The notes: generated by a model from the letters alone, not told the origin. 32,000 bases of DNA from Caldivirga maquilingensis IC-167 (GCF_000018305.1 NC_009954.1:1800001-1832000), one strand, 5' to 3'. Positions 1 to 16,633 are shown, counted from the stretch's first letter. Translations and numbers: made by a program.

Positions 1-1272
1 CCAATGGCTCCACCCCACTTATACACTTATGTTAATGAGGCTCCCAGTGAATTAATAAGTAATTTAACGGTAATTAACAGTGCACCCATAACGATAGGTA
101 AGGTTAAGGGCAGTGATACACCAGCTAGGTTAGATGCTGAGAAGTTAACCACGCATCACTGTGCAATACTGGCCTCCACGGGTTCAGGTAAATCATGGTT
201 AGCCGGCGTAATTGCGGAGGAATTAGCCTTAACCATTAAGATGCCTGTGGTTATAATAGATCCCCATGGTGAATACTCAAGCATGCAGTACCCGGCTGTT
301 GATGATCCTTTAGCTAATGAGGTAGCGAGTATGGTTAACATATATGTACCTGGTAGGGTTGATACCGGTGAAATAGATAAGTATTACATGGCTAAGTTCG
401 GGGAACCCAGGAGATACATTAGGATTGGCGTTAACCCAAGGAATATGCCCCTAGGAGTCCTAATTAAGCTTCTCACCCATTACTATGGTTTAACAGACAC
501 CCAGAGGAGACTGCTGGAGGAGGGGTGGCCTTATGACCCATCGATAGATGCACCATTAACAACCATAGATGAACTGGTGGGTGAGGTCATTGAGAGGAGT
601 CGGGGTTCAGCCCCTAAGGGTTATGCTGGTGAGTCATCAATATCATCGCTGGTTTCCAAGTTGAGGTCATTTCTTGAGAATAGGCCATTCTTCATAACAA
701 TGTACGGCGAACATTATGGTGATGAACCAATAAGGCTACTTGATGTTGAAAACATGCTTAATAAACCTGGCATAAACGTAATAGACTTATCCACACTTGA
801 TTTAATGGATCAACAGGCATTAGTGGCCTTAATGCTTGACTCCATGTTTAATTTAGCTAAGAGGAGGCGCATAATGCCGACCTTCGTGATAATTGAGGAG
901 GCGCATAACTTCTCACCCTCGAAGGCATTATCCATTAGTAAGTCATCAATACTCAGGATTGCAAGGGAGGGTAGGAAGTTTGGGTTAGGTTTATGCATAG
1001 TGTCTCAAAGACCCTCAAGGATTGACCCAGACGTGCTTAGTCAATGCATGACCCAAATCTTCAAGAGAATAATTAATCCCCTTGATTTAAAGTACGTTGC
1101 CTCTGTTGCTGAGAATATTTCAAGCGATGAGTTAACAACCCTTAAGTCACTTAACCCTGATGAAGCATATGTAACGGGTATGGCTACACCAATACCACTC
1201 CTGGTTAGGGTTAAGGGTAGGTTAACTCACCATGGTGGTGTAACTAGGTGGATTAGTACCATTAATCCTTAA
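1..1272 (+). CDS. HerA/COG0433-type (DUF87) P-loop ATPase, probably 5'-truncated by the window edge
   Basis: The frame is open to position 1. Walker A ASTGSGKS, IIDPHGEY, Walker B FVIIEEAHNF, and REGRKFGLGLCIVSQRPSRIDPDVLSQC typical of HerA-like ATPases. No HAS-barrel-like N-terminus is visible, so the N-terminus probably lies upstream of the window. Confidence 0.8.
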   Translation, partial: PMAPPHLYTYVNEAPSELISNLTVINSAPITIGKVKGSDTPARLDAEKLTTHHCAILASTGSGKSWLAGVIAEELALTIKMPVVIIDPHGEYSSMQYPAVDDPLANEVASMVNIYVPGRVDTGEIDKYYMAKFGEPRRYIRIGVNPRNMPLGVLIKLLTHYYGLTDTQRRLLEEGWPYDPSIDAPLTTIDELVGEVIERSRGSAPKGYAGESSISSLVSKLRSFLENRPFFITMYGEHYGDEPIRLLDVENMLNKPGINVIDLSTLDLMDQQALVALMLDSMFNLAKRRRIMPTFVIIEEAHNFSPSKALSISKSSILRIAREGRKFGLGLCIVSQRPSRIDPDVLSQCMTQIFKRIINPLDLKYVASVAENISSDELTTLKSLNPDEAYVTGMATPIPLLVRVKGRLTHHGGVTRWISTINP

Positions 1273-7932: not shown

Positions 7933-9138
7933 TCAAATGCCTTTAGATTTGAACATGAGTAGTATTAATATAGTTAACCCAATAACCAGCACAATCACCA
8001 TAACTACCTCACTCACAGTTACTGCACTCCCCCCAATTGAACTGAATTGAACACTGGGTGCTTGGAGTGCAGGGTTACTGATACCTATTGTGTAATTAAC
8101 CCTCATCACGAATGGCTCACCTGACAGTGTTGTGACATTATAGATTACGTTTAAACCACCGCCAATCCAATTACCCAGCACTGCGAATATGGCGCCGTTT
8201 AAATTCACCGGTATTATAGTTGACCTGCAGTTATTAACATTAAGTATTGATAGGTATGGTTCCCAAGTGGCGTCATTAATAATACCTCCCCCGAGTAGGG
8301 CAGTAGTGGCGTTAACCCAATACACATCAAATATTACTGCACTTGGGTTTATGCAGTTTGTGTAATTAATTAATGTACCATTATTATAATATAGGAGTGA
8401 AGTACCCATGGTGTAGGCGTTACCTACTCCAGACAGGTACATGGTTGGTATTGTTGATGAGGATTGTCTAATAATCATTATTGGTATTAAGGCTTCATTA
8501 TTAAATTGAAATAAACCAAGCGGTAAACCCTTAATCTGAGGCATGCTTAATGTCTTAATCCCATTACCATTAATTAAACCTAAAAGTGGCGTTAGGCTAC
8601 TTGACATTGCCAGAATAAGCAGTGAGTCACCCTGCACTGCAGCTGATACTGGTGTTGATGATGACCAAACACCCTTAAATATACTTGTTAAATTAAATAC
8701 GCTTCCCTTACTTAGATTTATTAGGAATGCTGATGCATAGCCATTAATCACCCCAAACACGTATACTGTATCATTAAGTACTGCTAGGGCATAGGGTTGC
8801 AGACTGATTGGTAGGTAACTTGATAAGTTGGTTACCTCTGTTATGTAATTACTTCCAAGCTTAAGCCTAATTAATAATGGACCACCACTACTGAAGCCGA
8901 GTAAATACAATTGATTACCATACTGATACGTGTTAGTCACCAATACACCCTGCCCATTACTAGGTATTACATTAACGTTAAACCAACCTGAGTCATTAAC
9001 TACATAAACCTGTGAGTACTGGCTGGTTGAGGTGAAGTTCACTATAACTGCTAATAGGTAATTACCCCCACTATATAGGTAAACTACTGGTGCCTTAAGT
9101 AATCCCAATGTTAATATTACTAATGCTAAACTTAACAT
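7933..9138 (-). CDS. Secreted, C-terminally membrane-anchored glycoprotein, beta-rich (propeller-like repeats), unknown function
   Basis: N-terminal signal-like helix, about 11 N-x-S/T sequons, recurring beta-strand patterns (YLLAV, LYLLGF, VYVFGV, LLILAM), C-terminal TM VVMVIVLVIGLTILILLMF followed by KSKGI. Confidence 0.6.
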   Translation of the reverse strand: MLSLALVILTLGLLKAPVVYLYSGGNYLLAVIVNFTSTSQYSQVYVVNDSGWFNVNVIPSNGQGVLVTNTYQYGNQLYLLGFSSGGPLLIRLKLGSNYITEVTNLSSYLPISLQPYALAVLNDTVYVFGVINGYASAFLINLSKGSVFNLTSIFKGVWSSSTPVSAAVQGDSLLILAMSSSLTPLLGLINGNGIKTLSMPQIKGLPLGLFQFNNEALIPIMIIRQSSSTIPTMYLSGVGNAYTMGTSLLYYNNGTLINYTNCINPSAVIFDVYWVNATTALLGGGIINDATWEPYLSILNVNNCRSTIIPVNLNGAIFAVLGNWIGGGLNVIYNVTTLSGEPFVMRVNYTIGISNPALQAPSVQFSSIGGSAVTVSEVVMVIVLVIGLTILILLMFKSKGI

Positions 9139-9215: not shown

Positions 9216-9731
9216 TTAAACACCAATAGCCACTAATGCTAAACCAATGAAGACTAAGGCTAAGCCAGCCACGAAGAGGTATAAGGCTTCAGGTAGTGTT
9301 CCAATTTGAACCTCCCATATGAGGTCTTTACCATAATACTGACACACACCGTAGTTAAGTATTGATACTTGACTACTGCTAATTATTGATGGGGATGATT
9401 GACCCCCATTAAGTATTGGCGGTATGTATGAACCATATGAGAATAATAATGTCCCATTTAAGGCGTACGCAGTTACCTTCATTGATACATGATATATCTT
9501 AGTGTAATTATTAATCATGCTCACTATACTTGATTTATTAACTAAATTCATTTCAGTTAAAGTACCTATGAATTCTAAGCATAATGTTGTTGCATTATGT
9601 TTACTAGATAATGATAAGTACACATGGGATAAGTACAATAGAATCCCCGCAGTTATAACTGCCGCTACACCTATTATGATCATGATCCTTTTAACACGGG
9701 CTGGTAGCTTAGGCACATGAATTAAGTGCAC
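9216..9731 (-). CDS. Hypothetical bitopic membrane protein (N- and C-terminal TM helices flanking an exposed domain)
   Basis: 171-aa ORF with TM helices IIIGVAAVITAGILLYL and LYLFVAGLALVFIGLALVAIGV. The start is uncertain (GTG 9731 or ATG 9683). Confidence 0.55.
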   Translation of the reverse strand: MHLIHVPKLPARVKRIMIIIGVAAVITAGILLYLSHVYLSLSSKHNATTLCLEFIGTLTEMNLVNKSSIVSMINNYTKIYHVSMKVTAYALNGTLLFSYGSYIPPILNGGQSSPSIISSSQVSILNYGVCQYYGKDLIWEVQIGTLPEALYLFVAGLALVFIGLALVAIGV

Positions 9732-10512: not shown

Positions 10513-13500
10513 TTAACTACGCTTAATACCACTTAAATATTTACCTCCAGTGAATCTGATGCTTCTTCTAATCCTGGTGATGCTTAGTAGTGTGGAGTAC
10601 GTGGTTTTATCATTGGTGCTTAGCTTCATTATACCCCTCACTGTGTTTACCTTACTTAACTTTAATGCTGTCTTAAACTTCACATCACCAATATTTTTCT
10701 CAATATAAGACTCTGCGAATAAAGTAACCATGTGGTCAAGTTGATTCATTAAACCGCTTAACCATGCCTTATCACTAGCATTAACCGCACCCTCATAGAA
10801 CCTACTCATTCTTATTAAGTAACGTACATAGAGTCTCCTGTATGCTGAGGAATTTGGATTAAGAGTTAACGCTGCTGTTAATTCCCTCTTTAAATCCTCA
10901 TCCAGAATCCCCTGTCTAATAATACTCCTAACAGTGTTAACGGTTATTAATGGATCAAGTGTCATGAGCATTTCCTTAATTAACGTTGCGGGATGGAGTC
11001 CTAGGCTTGTAGAGATTAAGGCTATGTCTACGTTACCTTTACTGAATGCATGCTCCATAATGATGTTCATTAATGTGCTTCTACGTCTAATATTAAGTGT
11101 ACCTGCACTTAAGTCCCTTAGGTAATTCATGAATAATGAGGGTATATTCGTTGAATCCCTTAGTAGGTAAACGGCTAAGTTGCTTATGTTTTTGGTGTTA
11201 ATTAAACCCCTTAATGGTGTTAATCCATTTAAATTAACGTAATTGAATCTTACTCCCTTGATGTTTAATCTCACGTATTGCTTAATTAAATTCCTCCTTA
11301 TACCTGATACTTTCCTTACACTGTTCATGATTATTCTATAGGTTTCCGCTGATACTTTCAATTTCTGTAACACCTCAGTAACCCTCCCAATGTAATTAAT
11401 AACCCATGGTGATGTTAATTCCCTGTAAATACTCATTAATTCCATTAATTTACCCTTATCAACACTAGCAAGCCCAGACTTAACTAAGGCTACTATTGCT
11501 TCAGCATTAGGATTCATGGCTAATGATAATAAGGTGAAAACTGCTAATTTATCATTCCTATTAACCCTATGTTCCTTACCCAGTTTCACCTCATTACTAG
11601 CATCCACTAACCTGGATATAATGTCCTTAGAGTGACCGTGAGTTAAGTAGGTTAATGCCGTGTACGCACTCCTCTTATTACTAATAAGCCTTAACCTACT
11701 CCTATACTCCATAATACTCCTGAAGAACCAATACCTAATCCTCCTCTGAGCCTCCCTACTGCTTAATAACCCCCTTTCATAAAGTTCAAAAACAAGAGCC
11801 TCATTTCTAATGAGCCTCCTCGCTAGGAATTCCCTTGACTCCACCCACCTATTCCACTTATCTCCAAGCAGTATATTTTCCGTTAATTCAAGTGGACCAA
11901 GGGGTCTGGCTAACAGGTACCTAATCCTAATCCTACTTATTAACCCTGGATTACGCCTACTACCCACTGTCTCCCTTAATAGGCTTGATAAGTATGGATT
12001 ACGCTTTGACTTAAGGTAGATGCCGAATAAACCGTGGTTACTCAAGTGGGTTAAGTAACCTTGCCTACTGTAAAGGGCTAGTAATCCACGTATCCTCTGT
12101 CTATTAGCTGGGTAATAACTGTAATTTTCCCCAGTAATACTGCTTAGATCCGTGATCCCGCCTTTTCCTCGTCTAATCCTCATTAAGCTAAGTATTAGTG
12201 ACCTGGGGGATTGATTACTGATTAAGAATATGAGGTTCCTTAATTCACTGGTTAACCTAATTATTGGTGTATTTAAGGGGGTTGATTCACCTGTAAGTAT
12301 TAGTAGTGCTTCAAGTAAACCCACTATTGATAATGGGTACATTAACCATGATAATGCGCTTGGAATCGCCATGAATTCACTTAGTAATGATCCGTGAAAG
12401 TCATTATTCATACTTCTAAAGTATTCATATAGATTACTAGTATATGCTAGTAGGTTACCCTCGTAACCCCATGTGCTTAATCTAGAGCCCACAATGGTGA
12501 TGCTGCCTCCTATTGTTCCATTACCCCTGCAGGTTATATTAATTAAATACTGATTCAAGTCCCTTGGGGGATTAGGGGTTATTGGGTTAAATATGCTTTC
12601 ATTCCTTAACCAAACCACACCATATGTTAATGATGAATTATAGTAGCTTAATGCATATTCCTCAAATTCATTGAACCGTGAGATTAATCCCCCATTAACA
12701 ACACTACTATTAATACTCAACACTTCTCCACTACAATTACTTGTCTTCCCCAAGTGGACATTAACCTTACTTGCATATACCCAAAGCATTATAATTGAAT
12801 TATTCATGGTTGTTTGATTGAAACGCAATACCACAGTGTCATTATTACTAGTGGCTAACCAAGCTGAGGGTTCCCTTATCCAACGCCAAAGTGCGATCAC
12901 TTTACCGTTAGTAATTAATTCATTAACCATTGGATGAACATTAATGTAAGTGACTGGGATCATTGACTCATTTACAGTACTTACTGTAATGGCTGCAGGA
13001 ACCTTGATCCAAGCCACGTACGTGGAGTTCAATGTTATTAAGCATCCTGGTTGATTCTCATTAATCATTATTGATTCATCATACGATATGAAACCTACAC
13101 TGCATATACTTCCTGTAATTAATGCATTAGGGGAGTTAAACACATATACGTGAATACTACCATTATAGTTCACTAAGTCAAGTGTCCTATTAACTAATGT
13201 GACTAGGTTAATTAAATTCATGTTATTGTACCCTAATGGGGATGAGGCATATACTGGAATCATCATTAAAGATAAACCCACTGCAATTAATGGTACTATC
13301 AATGACCTAATGCCCCTAATCATCACTAATGGTGCAAGTAACGCAACCACTGGTTCAAATGCTTTAGCTATCACCCATATGACGTGAATCATGTGGTATA
13401 TTATGTACATTAATTGAGAGTACGAGAAGACTATGTACAATACCTCTGATGCTAAGTCTATTAATCTTCCAAAAACTAGGTTTAACCCAATGTTACTTAG

Positions 13501-13803
13501 AATATACCCTAACCCAGTATTATATATGAATAATCCTAGAATATTAAGAACCATTAGCGCGATGCTCTTAGTAATCATTACTTTAGCCGTAGTATTAATT
13601 ACTAAGCCCCAGTACTCCTCCATCCTCACTACGGCATTTATGCTACTGCCATTGAATAAGCTAATTACCGTGAGGGACAATGACACTACACCTATGAATA
13701 AGATTACGTCATTTAGAATACGCTGATTATCATTCCCCCATATTTTATAGATAATGATTAATAATGATTCAATAAACATCAGTAACAGGGTTGCGTTAAT
13801 CAT
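10513..13803 (-). CDS. Giant (~1,096 aa) uncharacterised membrane protein: six TM helices, glycosylated ectodomain, seventh TM helix, Arg-rich helical cytoplasmic domain
   Basis: Uninterrupted 3.3-kb ORF. ATG 13803 overlaps the upstream stop as ATGA (the ORF track starts at TTG 13821). The ectodomain (about 12379-13245) carries 13 N-x-S/T sequons and all four Cys. The C-terminal ~580 aa (10513-12290) is Cys-free and R/L-rich. No family recognised. Confidence 0.85.
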   Translation of the reverse strand: MINATLLLMFIESLLIIIYKIWGNDNQRILNDVILFIGVVSLSLTVISLFNGSSINAVVRMEEYWGLVINTTAKVMITKSIALMVLNILGLFIYNTGLGYILSNIGLNLVFGRLIDLASEVLYIVFSYSQLMYIIYHMIHVIWVIAKAFEPVVALLAPLVMIRGIRSLIVPLIAVGLSLMMIPVYASSPLGYNNMNLINLVTLVNRTLDLVNYNGSIHVYVFNSPNALITGSICSVGFISYDESIMINENQPGCLITLNSTYVAWIKVPAAITVSTVNESMIPVTYINVHPMVNELITNGKVIALWRWIREPSAWLATSNNDTVVLRFNQTTMNNSIIMLWVYASKVNVHLGKTSNCSGEVLSINSSVVNGGLISRFNEFEEYALSYYNSSLTYGVVWLRNESIFNPITPNPPRDLNQYLINITCRGNGTIGGSITIVGSRLSTWGYEGNLLAYTSNLYEYFRSMNNDFHGSLLSEFMAIPSALSWLMYPLSIVGLLEALLILTGESTPLNTPIIRLTSELRNLIFLISNQSPRSLILSLMRIRRGKGGITDLSSITGENYSYYPANRQRIRGLLALYSRQGYLTHLSNHGLFGIYLKSKRNPYLSSLLRETVGSRRNPGLISRIRIRYLLARPLGPLELTENILLGDKWNRWVESREFLARRLIRNEALVFELYERGLLSSREAQRRIRYWFFRSIMEYRSRLRLISNKRSAYTALTYLTHGHSKDIISRLVDASNEVKLGKEHRVNRNDKLAVFTLLSLAMNPNAEAIVALVKSGLASVDKGKLMELMSIYRELTSPWVINYIGRVTEVLQKLKVSAETYRIIMNSVRKVSGIRRNLIKQYVRLNIKGVRFNYVNLNGLTPLRGLINTKNISNLAVYLLRDSTNIPSLFMNYLRDLSAGTLNIRRRSTLMNIIMEHAFSKGNVDIALISTSLGLHPATLIKEMLMTLDPLITVNTVRSIIRQGILDEDLKRELTAALTLNPNSSAYRRLYVRYLIRMSRFYEGAVNASDKAWLSGLMNQLDHMVTLFAESYIEKNIGDVKFKTALKLSKVNTVRGIMKLSTNDKTTYSTLLSITRIRRSIRFTGGKYLSGIKRS

Positions 13804-14204
13804 GGTGCTATACTTTTCCAAATCTCAATAAATGGGCTGAAAAACACCTTGTAGAGTAGTTCACTGGCGAAGCCCGCCGGGTTAACGATGCTTGATCCAC
13901 TAATGTAATTGGCTATTAGTGCGAGTGAGTAGACAGTCACATATAAGCCCACTATGGTTACTATGAACCATTTAAAGTTACTGAATAAATCCCATAATGC
14001 AGCCGCCCTAGCCCATCCTGTTGGACCAAGTTTACTTTCAATTGCCTTAACCAACACACTAATTACCATTAACCATAGCGCTAAACCCCCGATAATGCTC
14101 AGTACCCTGAAGGTATCGTTCATTATGGGTATTACTAATTCGTTTTCAATTTCACTAACTATGTCGTAGATTAAAGTAATCATTAGATAGTAGTTGTTTT
14201 GCAT
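13800..14204 (-). CDS. Small (134 aa) two-TM hairpin membrane protein, unknown function, co-operonic with the giant gene
   Basis: ATG start. Hydrophobic helices SIIGGLALWLMVISVLV and WFIVTIVGLYVTVYSLALIA are separated by a K/R-containing loop. The stop TGA overlaps the downstream ATG. Confidence 0.7.
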   Translation of the reverse strand: MQNNYYLMITLIYDIVSEIENELVIPIMNDTFRVLSIIGGLALWLMVISVLVKAIESKLGPTGWARAAALWDLFSNFKWFIVTIVGLYVTVYSLALIANYISGSSIVNPAGFASELLYKVFFSPFIEIWKSIAP

Positions 14205-14249
14205 AGCTTATCCTCAAACTATGTAGGGTAATGCTGCCAAGTGGTATGC

Positions 14250-14281
14250 CCTATATTAAATAAATGTTATAAGCATATAGG
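14250..14281. promoter_or_regulatory. Inverted repeat CCTATAT-N18-ATATAGG enclosing the TATA-like core of the divergent promoter
   Basis: Arms at 14250-14256 and 14275-14281 are exact reverse complements. ATATTAAATAAA (14253-14264) lies 30 nt upstream of ATG 14294. Confidence 0.45.
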
Positions 14282-14293
14282 TATGTAGTAACT

Positions 14294-15328
14294 ATGGGGG
14301 GAGGTAATTCTTCACAAATAACACTATATATGTATGCACCATCACTATTCCTCGACTTATACATAGGTTCAAGTTTATTGGCTAATCGTTACATTAATTG
14401 CTCAATACCATTAACATCATTGATTAATGATGCGTACTTCAGGAAAATACTCACCAACAATCTAACTAATTATGTAAAGGATGAGGAGGTAGGCAGGATT
14501 ATTAAGAATTTGAAGCATGTCTCATTAATATCAATAATTAATCCAACTTACGTCGTTAAGAAGGCTGAGAATATGGTTAATTTAATTAAGAATTATGAGA
14601 ATAGGTATAGGGATGATATTACGGAGTGGTATAGTAGGGTTACTAACCGTAGTAATTTACCTTATAGTAAAATGATCTACTCCCTGAAGCATACCATAAA
14701 GATTACTAGGGGAATGGTTAGGCATTACTTATATAAGAGGGCGCAGGGCTTAATAAGGAAGAGTACTATTGACTCATTAATGCTTTACATGTCAGTATTA
14801 CCAAATACACTTGCTGAATACTTGAATGTAACCAGTAAGAGTGATGCAATGGCTGTAATCTTCATTACCTCCTTGATTGATAAGTATAGTGCAAGTTACC
14901 CCATACACCTCATATTTGAGGTGTCAAGGAGGGTGCTGGCCATGAACCCTCGGTTACTGAAGGATACGTTAAATGGTATACTCACCAGTCTATCCCCTAA
15001 ATCCAATTACTATAATGCATTATTGGCTGAATTAACGAGAATCTACATCTATAATTATGGTTCACTTGATGATGTTCAGGTCAATTACCTGGTTTTTAAT
15101 TCCACAGTGGCTGATAATTTATTAAGTGAACACAGTACCGAGCTTATTAAGTCTAGGTTACTAAGCTCCATGCTTTATGAATACATATATAGGTTAAGCC
15201 TATTATCTATAAATAACGACTTGAATTCACTTCATGAATTATCTAAAATACTTGGTAATACTAAGGAGAATTTAATTAAAGCTATTTTAAATGAATGGAG
15301 TAAATTGAATGATGAATTAACGACTTAA
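14294..15328 (+). CDS. Hypothetical soluble all-helical protein (344 aa), divergent from the membrane operon
   Basis: Long ATG-initiated ORF in a very AT-rich stretch with no TM segments. It shares the L-x-[LM]-[NH]-P motif and the N/L/I/R/Y-rich composition with the C-terminus of the giant protein. Confidence 0.7.
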   Translation: MGGGNSSQITLYMYAPSLFLDLYIGSSLLANRYINCSIPLTSLINDAYFRKILTNNLTNYVKDEEVGRIIKNLKHVSLISIINPTYVVKKAENMVNLIKNYENRYRDDITEWYSRVTNRSNLPYSKMIYSLKHTIKITRGMVRHYLYKRAQGLIRKSTIDSLMLYMSVLPNTLAEYLNVTSKSDAMAVIFITSLIDKYSASYPIHLIFEVSRRVLAMNPRLLKDTLNGILTSLSPKSNYYNALLAELTRIYIYNYGSLDDVQVNYLVFNSTVADNLLSEHSTELIKSRLLSSMLYEYIYRLSLLSINNDLNSLHELSKILGNTKENLIKAILNEWSKLNDELTT

Positions 15329-15382
15329 AATCATTAAATAAATGCTGATTTTAAAATTAAGCAGGAACCTGAATAACGTCAC

Positions 15383-16633
15383 TTACTTAAGAGTTTCCAT
15401 AATTTCCATTAACGCCTTCCCATACTCCCTAGTACCAAGTGGTGTGACACCCATGTATCTGGCTATATCCTGCGTAACCTTCCTCTGCCTTATAGCCTCA
15501 GTAATAGCCTTATCAAGTAGGTTAGCTGCCTCGGTCCAATTCATGAACCTTAGTAGAAGTTCAATGGCCCTAATTTCACTGGTTGGGTTAGCAACATTCT
15601 TACCAGCGTACTTGGGGGCGGTGCCATGCATTGCCTCAACCATAACTGCGGTATCACCAACATTAGCTGCACCAATCATGCCTACGTTACCCATTAATGA
15701 TGCTGCTAATTCACTTATGTAGTCGCCGTTAACGTTTGGGGCTAGGACAACGTCATAGGATTCAGGCCTAGTAACCAATTGAGCGAACATGTTATCAGCC
15801 ATCCTATCATTAACAAGTATCTTCCCAGCCGGTACTTTACCGCCATAGAGCTTATTGACCTCATCCTCAGTCACTACGTAATCCCTGAACTCCTTTAACG
15901 CAACCTCATAAGCCCACTCCCTGAAGGCGCCCTCAGTGTACTTCATTACATTACCCTTATGCATTATGGTGACTGACCTCCTCTTATTATTCAACGCAAA
16001 CCTATAGGCAAACCTAGCAACCCTCTGGGTTCTCCAACGGCTTATCGGCTTAATACCAATACCACAGTCCTCATCAACCTCAACCTTAAGCTCCTCCCTA
16101 AGGAACTTCCTTAACTTAGCGGCCTCAGGACTGTCCCAAGTCCATTCAAGTCCCTTATATAAGTCATCAGTGTTCTCCCTCACTATGACCCAGTCAATCC
16201 TCTCAGGATTCTTTAATGGTGACTCAATACCTTGAACATACTTAATAGGCCTAACGTTAGCATAGGTGTCGAGCAGTAGCCTAATAGCCACGTTTATTGA
16301 CCTCCAACCACCACCAACTGGTGTTTCTAAGGGGCCCTTTAACACTACCCTATACTTCTGAAGTGCATCAATGGTTTCCTGGGGAAGCCTATTGCCAGTA
16401 AGCTTCTCAGCCTTCTCACCTGCGTAAACCTCCATCCACTTTATCTGCCTTGATGAACCATAGGCTAATTCAACTGCCTTATCGGCAACCTCCATGGCTA
16501 CACTAACGATTTCAGGCCCTATTCCATCACCAAGTATGTAGAGTACTATGGGCTTATTCGGAACCTTCTCAAATACCGCATTCCTAATTACTATGGGTTC
16601 ACCATCCTCAGGTGGTTTGTATTGAACAGGCAT
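15383..16633 (-). CDS. icd: NADP-dependent isocitrate dehydrogenase
   Basis: 416 aa. SINVAIRLLLDTYANVRP, VIVRENTDDLYKGLEW, NVNGDYISE, HGTAPKYAGKNVANP. Confidence 0.9.
   Translation of the reverse strand: MPVQYKPPEDGEPIVIRNAVFEKVPNKPIVLYILGDGIGPEIVSVAMEVADKAVELAYGSSRQIKWMEVYAGEKAEKLTGNRLPQETIDALQKYRVVLKGPLETPVGGGWRSINVAIRLLLDTYANVRPIKYVQGIESPLKNPERIDWVIVRENTDDLYKGLEWTWDSPEAAKLRKFLREELKVEVDEDCGIGIKPISRWRTQRVARFAYRFALNNKRRSVTIMHKGNVMKYTEGAFREWAYEVALKEFRDYVVTEDEVNKLYGGKVPAGKILVNDRMADNMFAQLVTRPESYDVVLAPNVNGDYISELAASLMGNVGMIGAANVGDTAVMVEAMHGTAPKYAGKNVANPTSEIRAIELLLRFMNWTEAANLLDKAITEAIRQRKVTQDIARYMGVTPLGTREYGKALMEIMETLK

Follow-up and report, generated by a model that had tools for sequence, protein, structure and literature searches.

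Ted (Thermoproteales exchange of DNA) is an archaeal relative of conjugative type IV secretion that has been domesticated on the chromosome. Homologs of its pilin, TedC, are present in all five genera of Thermoproteales, including Caldivirga (Beltran et al. 2023, PMC9905601). A gene encoding a protein with seven transmembrane (TM) segments lies downstream of tedC, and tedB adjoins tedC in Thermocladium (PMC9905601). ParA-like genes are common in Ted loci, and in some species components are encoded at distal loci (PMC9905601). In Ced, the system found in Sulfolobales and Desulfurococcales (CedA, CedA1, CedA2, plus CedB; van Wolferen et al. 2016, cited in PMC9905601 and PMC11823120), the pilins CedA1 and CedA2 lack signal peptides (PMC11823120). 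How the Ced and Ted machines are assembled and transport DNA remains an open question, and most parts of bacterial type IV secretion systems have no archaeal counterpart (PMC9905601, PMC11823120). Here, we describe three genes in a 32,000-nt stretch of the genome of Caldivirga maquilingensis IC-167 (NC_009954.1:1800001-1832000; referred to as the window). The trio consists of a small gene, a giant gene, and a divergently oriented gene encoding a protein of 344 amino acids (aa). The small gene and the giant gene are likely the Caldivirga tedC locus and, as such, the core of the Caldivirga version of Ted.

The locus resembles Ted as described for TedC, TedA, and TedB (PMC9905601, 8DFT) in that its predicted pilin is homologous to TedC and the pilin gene lies immediately upstream of a gene encoding a seven-TM protein. 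In addition, the homologous gene pair in Thermocladium adjoins TedB-like and ParA-like genes. Unlike Ted, the Caldivirga locus encodes a pilin without a Sec signal peptide, has no linked ATPase gene, and contains an extra conserved gene, that encoding the 344-aa protein. The seven-TM protein (referred to as the giant) is 1,096 aa in length compared with about 270-320 aa for Pyrobaculum TedA, and it has, in addition, a basic tail of 591 aa and, between TM6 and TM7, an ectodomain of 288 aa. Ced, which we compared by description, likewise combines a signal-less, two-TM pilin with a partner that has six to seven TM segments, and the Ced ATPase can be unlinked from the membrane genes. CedA, however, lacks the large ecto- and cytoplasmic domains of the giant. 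The assignment of the system to Ted is already in the literature. What appears to be new, as judged from sequence, is the 1,096-aa partner in place of a compact TedA, the clade-specific third gene, and a kinship with an undescribed giant protein of Pyrobaculum.

The small gene encodes a predicted TedC-type pilin

The small protein is predicted to form a two-helix hairpin with an acidic N-terminal tail. Its TM segments span approximately residues 23-50 and 70-95 of 127 aa, and the loop between them bears K46, K51, R59, and K71. The sole PDB match of this protein was 8DFT_A, the TedC pilin of Pyrobaculum calidifontis. The expectation value (E) of this match was 0.29 with the single sequence and 0.14 with a family profile, and the alignment was collinear across both helices and the loop. 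For a family-versus-family comparison, we gathered relatives of Pyrobaculum TedC and aligned the small-protein family (A6) with the TedC family (A5) using hhalign. This alignment had a probability of 92.9%, an E of 3.7e-7, and a score of 45.6 over 98 columns. As controls, the reversed TedC alignment scored 11.8, and the best of 30 shuffles, which were made within 15-column blocks so that the hydrophobic layout was preserved, scored 20.3. The A6-A5 alignment ran collinearly through the entire mature pilin, with its loop and a C-terminal PxxxM/F motif. Collectively, these comparisons show that the small protein is a predicted pilin homologous to those of the TedC/CedA1/VirB2 type.

An earlier interpretation of this DNA, made without database searches (the sequence-only reading), had described all three proteins as unrecognizable. 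This description still applies to the 344-aa protein and to the ecto- and cytoplasmic domains of the giant, but not to the small protein, given its homology to TedC. The Pfam and PDB checks that the same reading had proposed placed none of the proteins in a characterized, unrelated family; TedC (8DFT) was the only hit, and it was to the small protein.

Orthologs of the small protein are 63-92% identical, whereas identities for its partner proteins extend down to 29-77%. For the distant locus L007, identity is 66% for the pilin, 29% for the giant, and 30% for the third protein. The pilin is thus far better conserved than its neighbors, which is the pattern expected of a filament subunit.

The small protein has no Sec signal peptide, and all six members of the clade start at the same point. 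An in-frame stop codon located 6 nt upstream of the first ATG of the small gene rules out a missed N-terminal extension. The sequence-only reading had raised the acidic, signal-less N-terminus as an objection to a Ced/Ted relationship. It does not count against one, because CedA1 and CedA2 are signal-less as well (PMC11823120), and a signal peptide therefore does not define the wider pilin family. The missing signal peptide does, however, truly set the small protein apart from the TedC proteins of Pyrobaculum and Thermocladium. The gene models show what appears to be a new, signal-less variant of TedC, and the TedC pilins of Thermoproteales would accordingly not be uniformly signal-peptide dependent. 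Such a variant bears on the export route of these pilins.

The homologous gene pair of Thermocladium lies in a Ted-type cluster

The Thermocladium homolog of the giant (P0008; E of 1e-18 over 520 aa) directly follows a 149-aa protein with a clear signal peptide (P0069), which shares 38% identity with the small protein of Caldivirga (E of 9e-27). The gene order at this locus (L010) is ParA-like, 90 aa, 169 aa, ATPase, signal-peptide pilin, and giant, and no protein of the cluster other than the giant is polytopic. The ParA-like ATPase matches CbiA/AAA_31. The second ATPase is 681 aa in length, has DUF87/HerA_C/AAA_10/TraG-P-loop matches and N-terminal TM segments, and aligns from end to end with TedB, the 645-aa DUF87 protein of the Pyrobaculum Ted locus (E of 2.5e-15 and 3e-14). 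Because this arrangement matches the published description of Ted (PMC9905601), we assign the pair to the Ted lineage; the homologous pair in Thermocladium is located in a Ted-type context. The sequence-only reading had offered a very distant Ced/Ted module as a weak hypothesis. Its pilin component is supported by the hhalign comparison (92.9%) and its placement in the Ted lineage by the Thermocladium cluster, but homology of the giant to Ted proteins did not reach significance.

The TedB-like DUF87 ATPases at L010:7394-9439 and L014:2315-4252 have hydrophobic segments near residues 3-49 and 167-202, and both are likely membrane-anchored, as reported for some Ced ATPases. A gene resembling IS605 OrfB/TnpB is located approximately 1.8 kb downstream of the Thermocladium cluster (L010:14559-15818, minus strand).

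Gene models, distribution, and synteny of the trio

The three open reading frames (ORFs) that had been recognized between moaB and icd are all present (Table 1), and the genes that flank them match MoCF_biosynth (moaB-like) and Iso_dh (icd). The giant ORF matches an NCBI protein of C. maquilingensis at 100% identity. Alignments of orthologs support the ATG at 13803 as the start of the giant, which agrees with the previous estimate of about 1,096 aa. The ORF and hairpin of the small protein, originally described as 134 aa, were likewise borne out, but its start was revised to 14183, which yields 127 aa. The ATG of the giant overlaps the TGA of the small gene as ATGA, and the pilin gene and the giant are therefore translationally coupled.

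Table 1. Coordinates of the trio, of the segments of the giant protein, and of the intergenic region in the window
Feature	Position	Strand	Description
Small ORF, longest form	13800-14204	-	134 aa; upstream ATG at 14204 is an alternative start
Small gene (putative tedC-like pilin gene), revised	13800..14183	-	127 aa; start from ortholog alignments
Giant ORF, longest form	10513-13821	-	1,102 aa
Giant residues 1-190, six-TM core	13234..13803	-	From hydropathy and AlphaFold2 helices
Giant residues 191-478, predicted extracellular beta-rich domain	12370..13233	-	13 sequons and all four Cys
Giant residues 479-505, TM7 VGLLEALLILTGESTP	12289..12369	-	Invariant G495 and L500
Giant residues 506-1096, predicted cytoplasmic domain	10513..12288	-	Cys-free, Arg/Leu-rich, all-helical, net charge +52
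Shared divergent promoter region	14184..14293	.	110 bp between the small gene and the third gene
Divergent third gene	14294..15328	+	344-aa soluble helical protein

The NCBI model of the giant (P0001, 1,057 aa) begins 39 codons downstream of the start backed by all orthologs (region 13687-13803), and the first TM helix is probably missing from the deposited annotation. Several giant entries from Caldivirga metagenome-assembled genomes also have 1,050 aa instead of 1,084 aa.

Searches of Pfam, NCBIfam, PHROG, and PADLOC returned no family for any of the three proteins, and a PDB sequence search yielded nothing meaningful for the giant, for its N-terminal profile, or for the third-protein profile. 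When 1.84 billion representative proteins were scanned with a HMMER profile of the giant, only nine family members were recovered and no annotated relative was among the matches. These members belong to Caldivirga spp., a Thermocladium sp. (P0008), and three metagenomic lineages (P0006, P0007, and P0009). A scan of the genome collection recovered Caldivirga spp. only, and a metagenome scan with TedC recovered only two loci. A tblastn search of plasmids with the giant yielded no match, so nothing in that search suggests that the giant is part of a conjugative plasmid.

Conserved synteny of the trio had been set beforehand as a test, and the order of divergent gene, small gene, and giant is kept in five further loci that have other flanking genes: those of Caldivirga UBA161, of two additional Caldivirga lineages, and of L007 and L009, which are distant. 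The neighbors are TrmB/Cdc6/RFC in L007 and ATP-grasp/DUF123 in L009. Since the trio is constant while its flanks vary, it travels as a unit. The small gene precedes the giant in all eight loci whose sequence reaches far enough upstream of the giant. The only exception to the pilin-giant order is L008, in which an unrelated 150-aa protein without TM segments is encoded directly upstream of P0009.

Conservation of the giant across all nine members is restricted to the N-terminal ~520 residues, which comprise the TM core, the ectodomain, and TM7. Neither the P0008 tail nor the P0009 tail is alignable with that of Caldivirga, though both retain its basic helical character; the P0008 tail is Cys-free, and the P0009 tail has three Cys. 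Sequence conservation of the cytoplasmic tail is confined to the Caldivirga-like clade.

The giant has large predicted domains on both sides of the membrane

Hydropathy and AlphaFold2 (AF2) helices place six TM helices in the N-terminal region of the giant and a seventh at residues 479-505. Residues 191-478 contain 13 N-x-S/T sequons, compared with 6.3 +/- 2.2 in composition-preserving shuffles (P = 0.003), and include all four Cys of the protein. The 591-aa tail has no Cys, is 10.8% Arg, and carries a net charge of +52. This layout of six TM helices, an ectodomain holding the 13 sequons and the only four Cys, TM7, and a Cys-free, Arg-rich tail reproduces in full the one that the sequence-only reading had described. 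Cys, sequons, and charge are partitioned in this way in 9/9 family representatives, with a Cys-free tail in 8/9, and the partition is thus a conserved, selected feature rather than a product of chance. The cytoplasmic TM5-TM6 loop, PLVMIRGIRSL, contains an invariant R. These features are consistent with an N-out/C-in topology in which the RGIR loop and the +52 tail would be inside and the loops with sequons and Cys outside. The positive-inside rule and the sequon/Cys partition agree on this topology, and both match the in/out assignment made previously.

AF2 modeling of the full giant gave a predicted local distance difference test (pLDDT) score of 38.5, and the model was unusable. The N-terminal 530 aa, modeled with eight more diverse sequences, reached a pLDDT of 56.7. 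In this model, the ectodomain is predicted to be a beta-sandwich, with a pLDDT of 74-90 over about residues 220-370 and 410-440; comparison of the ectodomain with PDB and BFVD yielded no significant fold match. For the tail, Foldseek returned only generic alpha-solenoid look-alikes, none of them significant.

Relation of the giant to TedA and to a giant protein of Pyrobaculum

In Pyrobaculum, tedC is followed by tedA (272-316 aa, seven TM) and then by a gene for a 4,725-5,085-aa protein (referred to as the Pyrobaculum giant), whose start overlaps the stop of tedA. In Caldivirga and Thermocladium, the pilin gene is followed by the giant only, with no separate short tedA. The predicted topology of the giant is collinear with that of TedA: N-out, an external TM2-TM3 loop, a cytoplasmic RxxR loop between TM5 and TM6, and C-in. 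The TM5-TM6 loop motifs are PLVMIRGIRSL in the giant, ERTRPLGA in P0009, HERTRVLGA in TedA, and PRLRGIGA in the Pyrobaculum giant; their likeness is not significant. The two proteins differ mainly in length, with an external TM6-TM7 loop of 29 aa in TedA versus 288 aa in the giant and a C-terminus of 6 aa in TedA versus 591 aa in the giant.

The sequence-only reading had suggested that the giant is VirB6-like, and this suggestion was not upheld, as every profile comparison with TedA was insignificant. Removing the ectodomain or aligning in global mode did not render homology of the giant to TedA or to the Pyrobaculum giant significant, and the giant had no Pfam TrbL match and no PDB match. As a control, a bona fide Pyrobaculum TedA also matched no VirB6 with the same tools. 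The giant and TedA profiles are shallow (effective number of sequences, 1.2-3), and the lineages differ in composition (Ala-rich versus Ile/Asn-rich). Because of these shallow profiles, the composition gap, and the equally null TedA control, the null homology tests are uninformative. A VirB6-like label for the giant would rest on gene position, topology, and short motifs.

The Pyrobaculum giant has six TM segments in residues 1-245; an ectodomain at residues 250-980 with 10 of its 12 Cys and all 20 of its sequons; a TM segment at residues 984-1003; and then thousands of Cys-free, sequon-free helical residues with 11-16% Arg. It therefore shares with the Caldivirga giant the layout of six TM segments, ectodomain, TM segment, and Arg-rich, Cys-free region, and it is encoded at the 3' end of the tedC operon (L014, L015, L017, and L018). 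The two also share short collinear motifs in the TM5-TM6 loop and in TM7. The TM7 motif, GxxEALxxLxGxxTP, is found in VGLLEALLILTGESTP of the giant and LGAFEALGLLFGFPTP of the Pyrobaculum giant (hhalign E of 0.038, not significant). In contrast to the Caldivirga giant, the Pyrobaculum giant is larger by a factor of four to five, occurs alongside a separate TedA, and has a tail that is less basic overall and rich in R and E. TedA itself aligned over 174 columns with the N-terminal part of the Pyrobaculum giant (E of 0.079), and the RxR loop motif is the same in both.

On these grounds, the closest architectural twin of the giant appears to be the 4,725-5,085-aa protein of Pyrobaculum, and the firmest statement about the kinship of the two is an architectural one. 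Two readings are open: the giant may be a TedA-like core with acquired domains, or it may be the counterpart of a giant accessory protein that is itself possibly a TedA paralog. Combinations of a VirB6-like polytopic core with very large extra domains, sometimes in tandem paralogs, are represented by the RvhB6 paralogs of Rickettsiales and by TraG of the F plasmid. The RvhB6 and TraG extensions are unrelated in sequence to those of the giant, and their insertion positions differ.

The Pyrobaculum giant genes are located at L014:11364-20450 (which runs off the locus), L017:11390-20468, L018:1929-8567, and L015:3393-6438, and their ectodomain is ~740 aa. We found no mention of this protein in Beltran et al. 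2023 (PMC9905601).

The third gene and the divergent promoter region

The third protein is 29-80% identical across loci, and its gene is always divergent from the pilin gene (six loci). A homolog search with the third-protein family found members confined to the same clade. There was no match in Pfam, PDB, or PHROG, and a comparison with every protein of the Thermocladium and Pyrobaculum Ted clusters revealed no counterpart. The C-terminal ~50 codons of the third gene, encoding LSKILGNTKENLIKAILNEW, aligned weakly in hhalign with the stretch ISTSLGLHPATLIKEMLMTLD of the giant tail (~10990-11050; E of 0.015). Both stretches look helix-turn-helix-like, which is a lead only. We propose that the third protein is a lineage-specific cytoplasmic accessory that shares a promoter region with the pilin gene.

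Within the divergent promoter region, a TATA-like sequence, TTTATTTAATATA, is located at 14252-14264. An inverted repeat, TAGGG-N20-CCCTA, spans 14224-14253, with the TATA-like box on one side and the point where the pilin transcript should begin on the other. The half-sites of this repeat are the only blocks that are invariant in all six loci, including the distant L007 and L009. Taken alone, the repeat motif occurs in the window no less often than chance predicts. We regard it as a candidate operator. In Pyrobaculum, CCCTACGCCGTAGG is found 17 nt upstream of tedC (L014:9979-9992), and nothing similar is found in Thermocladium.

Other genes in the window

A partial gene at 4-1272 (+) encodes a HerA-type DUF87 ATPase, which is 524 aa in its orthologs and whose best PADLOC match is a HerA model (7e-48). 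It resembles TedB only around the P-loop and is far less like TedB than the TedB proteins of Thermocladium and Pyrobaculum are like each other. The sequence-only reading had pointed to this protein, as a COG0433 ATPase, as a possible partner of the trio; being HerA-type, weakly TedB-like, and linked only within Caldivirga, it does not qualify. We rejected it both as the motor and as a member of the module because approximately 9 kb of housekeeping genes lie between it and the trio, its synteny with the trio is limited to Caldivirga, and it is not TedB-like.

Two orphan, sequon-rich proteins with hydrophobic anchors are encoded downstream of the moaB-like gene, one of 401 aa (7933-9138, minus strand) and one of 171 aa (9216-9731, minus strand). 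Neither belongs to a family in Pfam, NCBIfam, or PHROGs. Their position is kept in Caldivirga loci, but they are not beside the trio in L007. A 126-aa ORF at 15342-15722 (+) lies antisense inside icd and is almost certainly spurious.

Alternative explanations and proposed mechanism

Several observations weigh against reading the small gene and the giant as the core of a Ted system. The pilin lacks the Sec signal peptide reported for TedC of Thermoproteales. Neither a VirB4-like nor a ParA-like gene accompanies the trio in the loci of Caldivirga and of three metagenomic lineages, and a second, more canonical tedC-tedA pair may exist elsewhere in the Caldivirga genome, as the search covered these loci. 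DNA import by Ted in Thermoproteales is itself extrapolated from Ced. Comparisons of the giant were not significant by hhalign, either with TedA (E of 0.35-0.41) or with the N-terminus of the Pyrobaculum giant (E of 0.038-0.075), and those of the giant core with TedA and the Pyrobaculum giant reached a probability of no more than 1.4%. In a decoy-calibrated hmmsearch, only one of the four Pyrobaculum giants scored above all decoys. Finally, the AF2 model of the giant TM core is of low confidence (below ~55 pLDDT).

The same material allows other explanations. The trio could still be Ted with the giant as a shortened counterpart of the Pyrobaculum giant accessory instead of a TedA/VirB6 homolog. 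The ~300-aa TedA would then be lost or encoded elsewhere, and the giant would be a scaffold, adhesin, or accessory spanning the surface layer (S-layer) rather than the pore. The shared layout of the two giants speaks for this explanation, as does the tandem arrangement in which Pyrobaculum keeps tedA and its giant. The best weak similarities of the giant are also to the N-terminus of the Pyrobaculum giant and not to TedA (hhalign E of 0.04-0.056, TM7 motif; phmmer with P0009, E of 6e-5 in a nine-sequence database), but none of these similarities is statistically significant. Moreover, the Thermocladium cluster encodes no other polytopic protein, so the channel must come from something, and TedA and the Pyrobaculum giant may be paralogs (E of 0.079), in which case the distinction from a TedA-like core disappears. 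We consider this explanation rather unlikely, if the most serious of the alternatives.

A TedC-type pilus might instead serve adhesion, aggregation, or biofilm formation, with the tail binding lipid or cytoskeletal partners rather than nucleic acid. Adhesion would fit a large ectodomain that is glycosylated, the trio has no linked gene for an ATPase, ParA, Rad50, or RadA in Caldivirga, L007, or L009, and Pfam, PDB sequence, and Foldseek searches detected no nucleic-acid-binding domain. We nevertheless regard such a role as improbable: the Thermocladium homologs sit with ParA-like and VirB4-like ATPases, Pyrobaculum Ted loci also carry RadA, and all characterized relatives of the pilin fold, namely VirB2, CedA1, and Ced, are tied to DNA transfer (PMC9905601). 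It is more improbable still, to the point of being hardly credible, that the likeness to TedC is convergent, arising from two hydrophobic helices and a basic loop, and that the three proteins form an unrelated membrane complex specific to their lineage. Spurious matches arise easily with short hydrophobic hairpins, the E values against 8DFT are weak, and the giant and the third protein have no recognizable relatives. However, the family-level score of 45.6 is well apart from those of the reversed and block-shuffled controls (11.8 and at most 20.3), the alignment extends over the entire mature pilin with its loop and PxxxM/F motif, and the genomic context in Thermocladium independently agrees.

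If the small gene and the giant are indeed the Caldivirga tedC locus, the pilin would insert without a signal peptide as a helical hairpin whose termini both face outward and whose basic loop faces inward, as in Ced pilins, and would polymerize, probably together with lipid, to form a hollow pilus. The giant, translated from the pilin transcript by coupling, would be the membrane platform or channel at the base of this pilus. Its glycosylated, disulfide-bonded beta-sandwich between TM6 and TM7 would reach into or through the S-layer space, and its basic 591-residue tail could receive or hand over nucleic acid or dock ATPases encoded elsewhere in the genome. In this scheme, the assembly of a pilus, the function of the giant as a channel, the handling of DNA, and whatever part the third protein plays are steps that we infer.

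An extension of this model, which we put forward tentatively and think has a less than even chance of holding, is that the Caldivirga/Thermocladium giants and the Pyrobaculum giants together represent a previously unrecognized core component of Ted, with a VirB6-like seven-TM core, a glycosylated ectodomain that spans the S-layer, and a basic solenoid in the cytoplasm. If true, this component would replace the VirB8-10 scaffold and coupling-protein functions that archaea appear to lack, and the Caldivirga giant would have absorbed TedA altogether and recruited the 344-aa protein as a cytoplasmic partner. The giant is a concrete target for cryo-electron microscopy and cryo-electron tomography, for pull-downs, and for DNA-binding assays of its basic tail. 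With large predicted domains on both sides of the membrane, it is a candidate for the architecture that is missing from current descriptions of the Ced and Ted machines.

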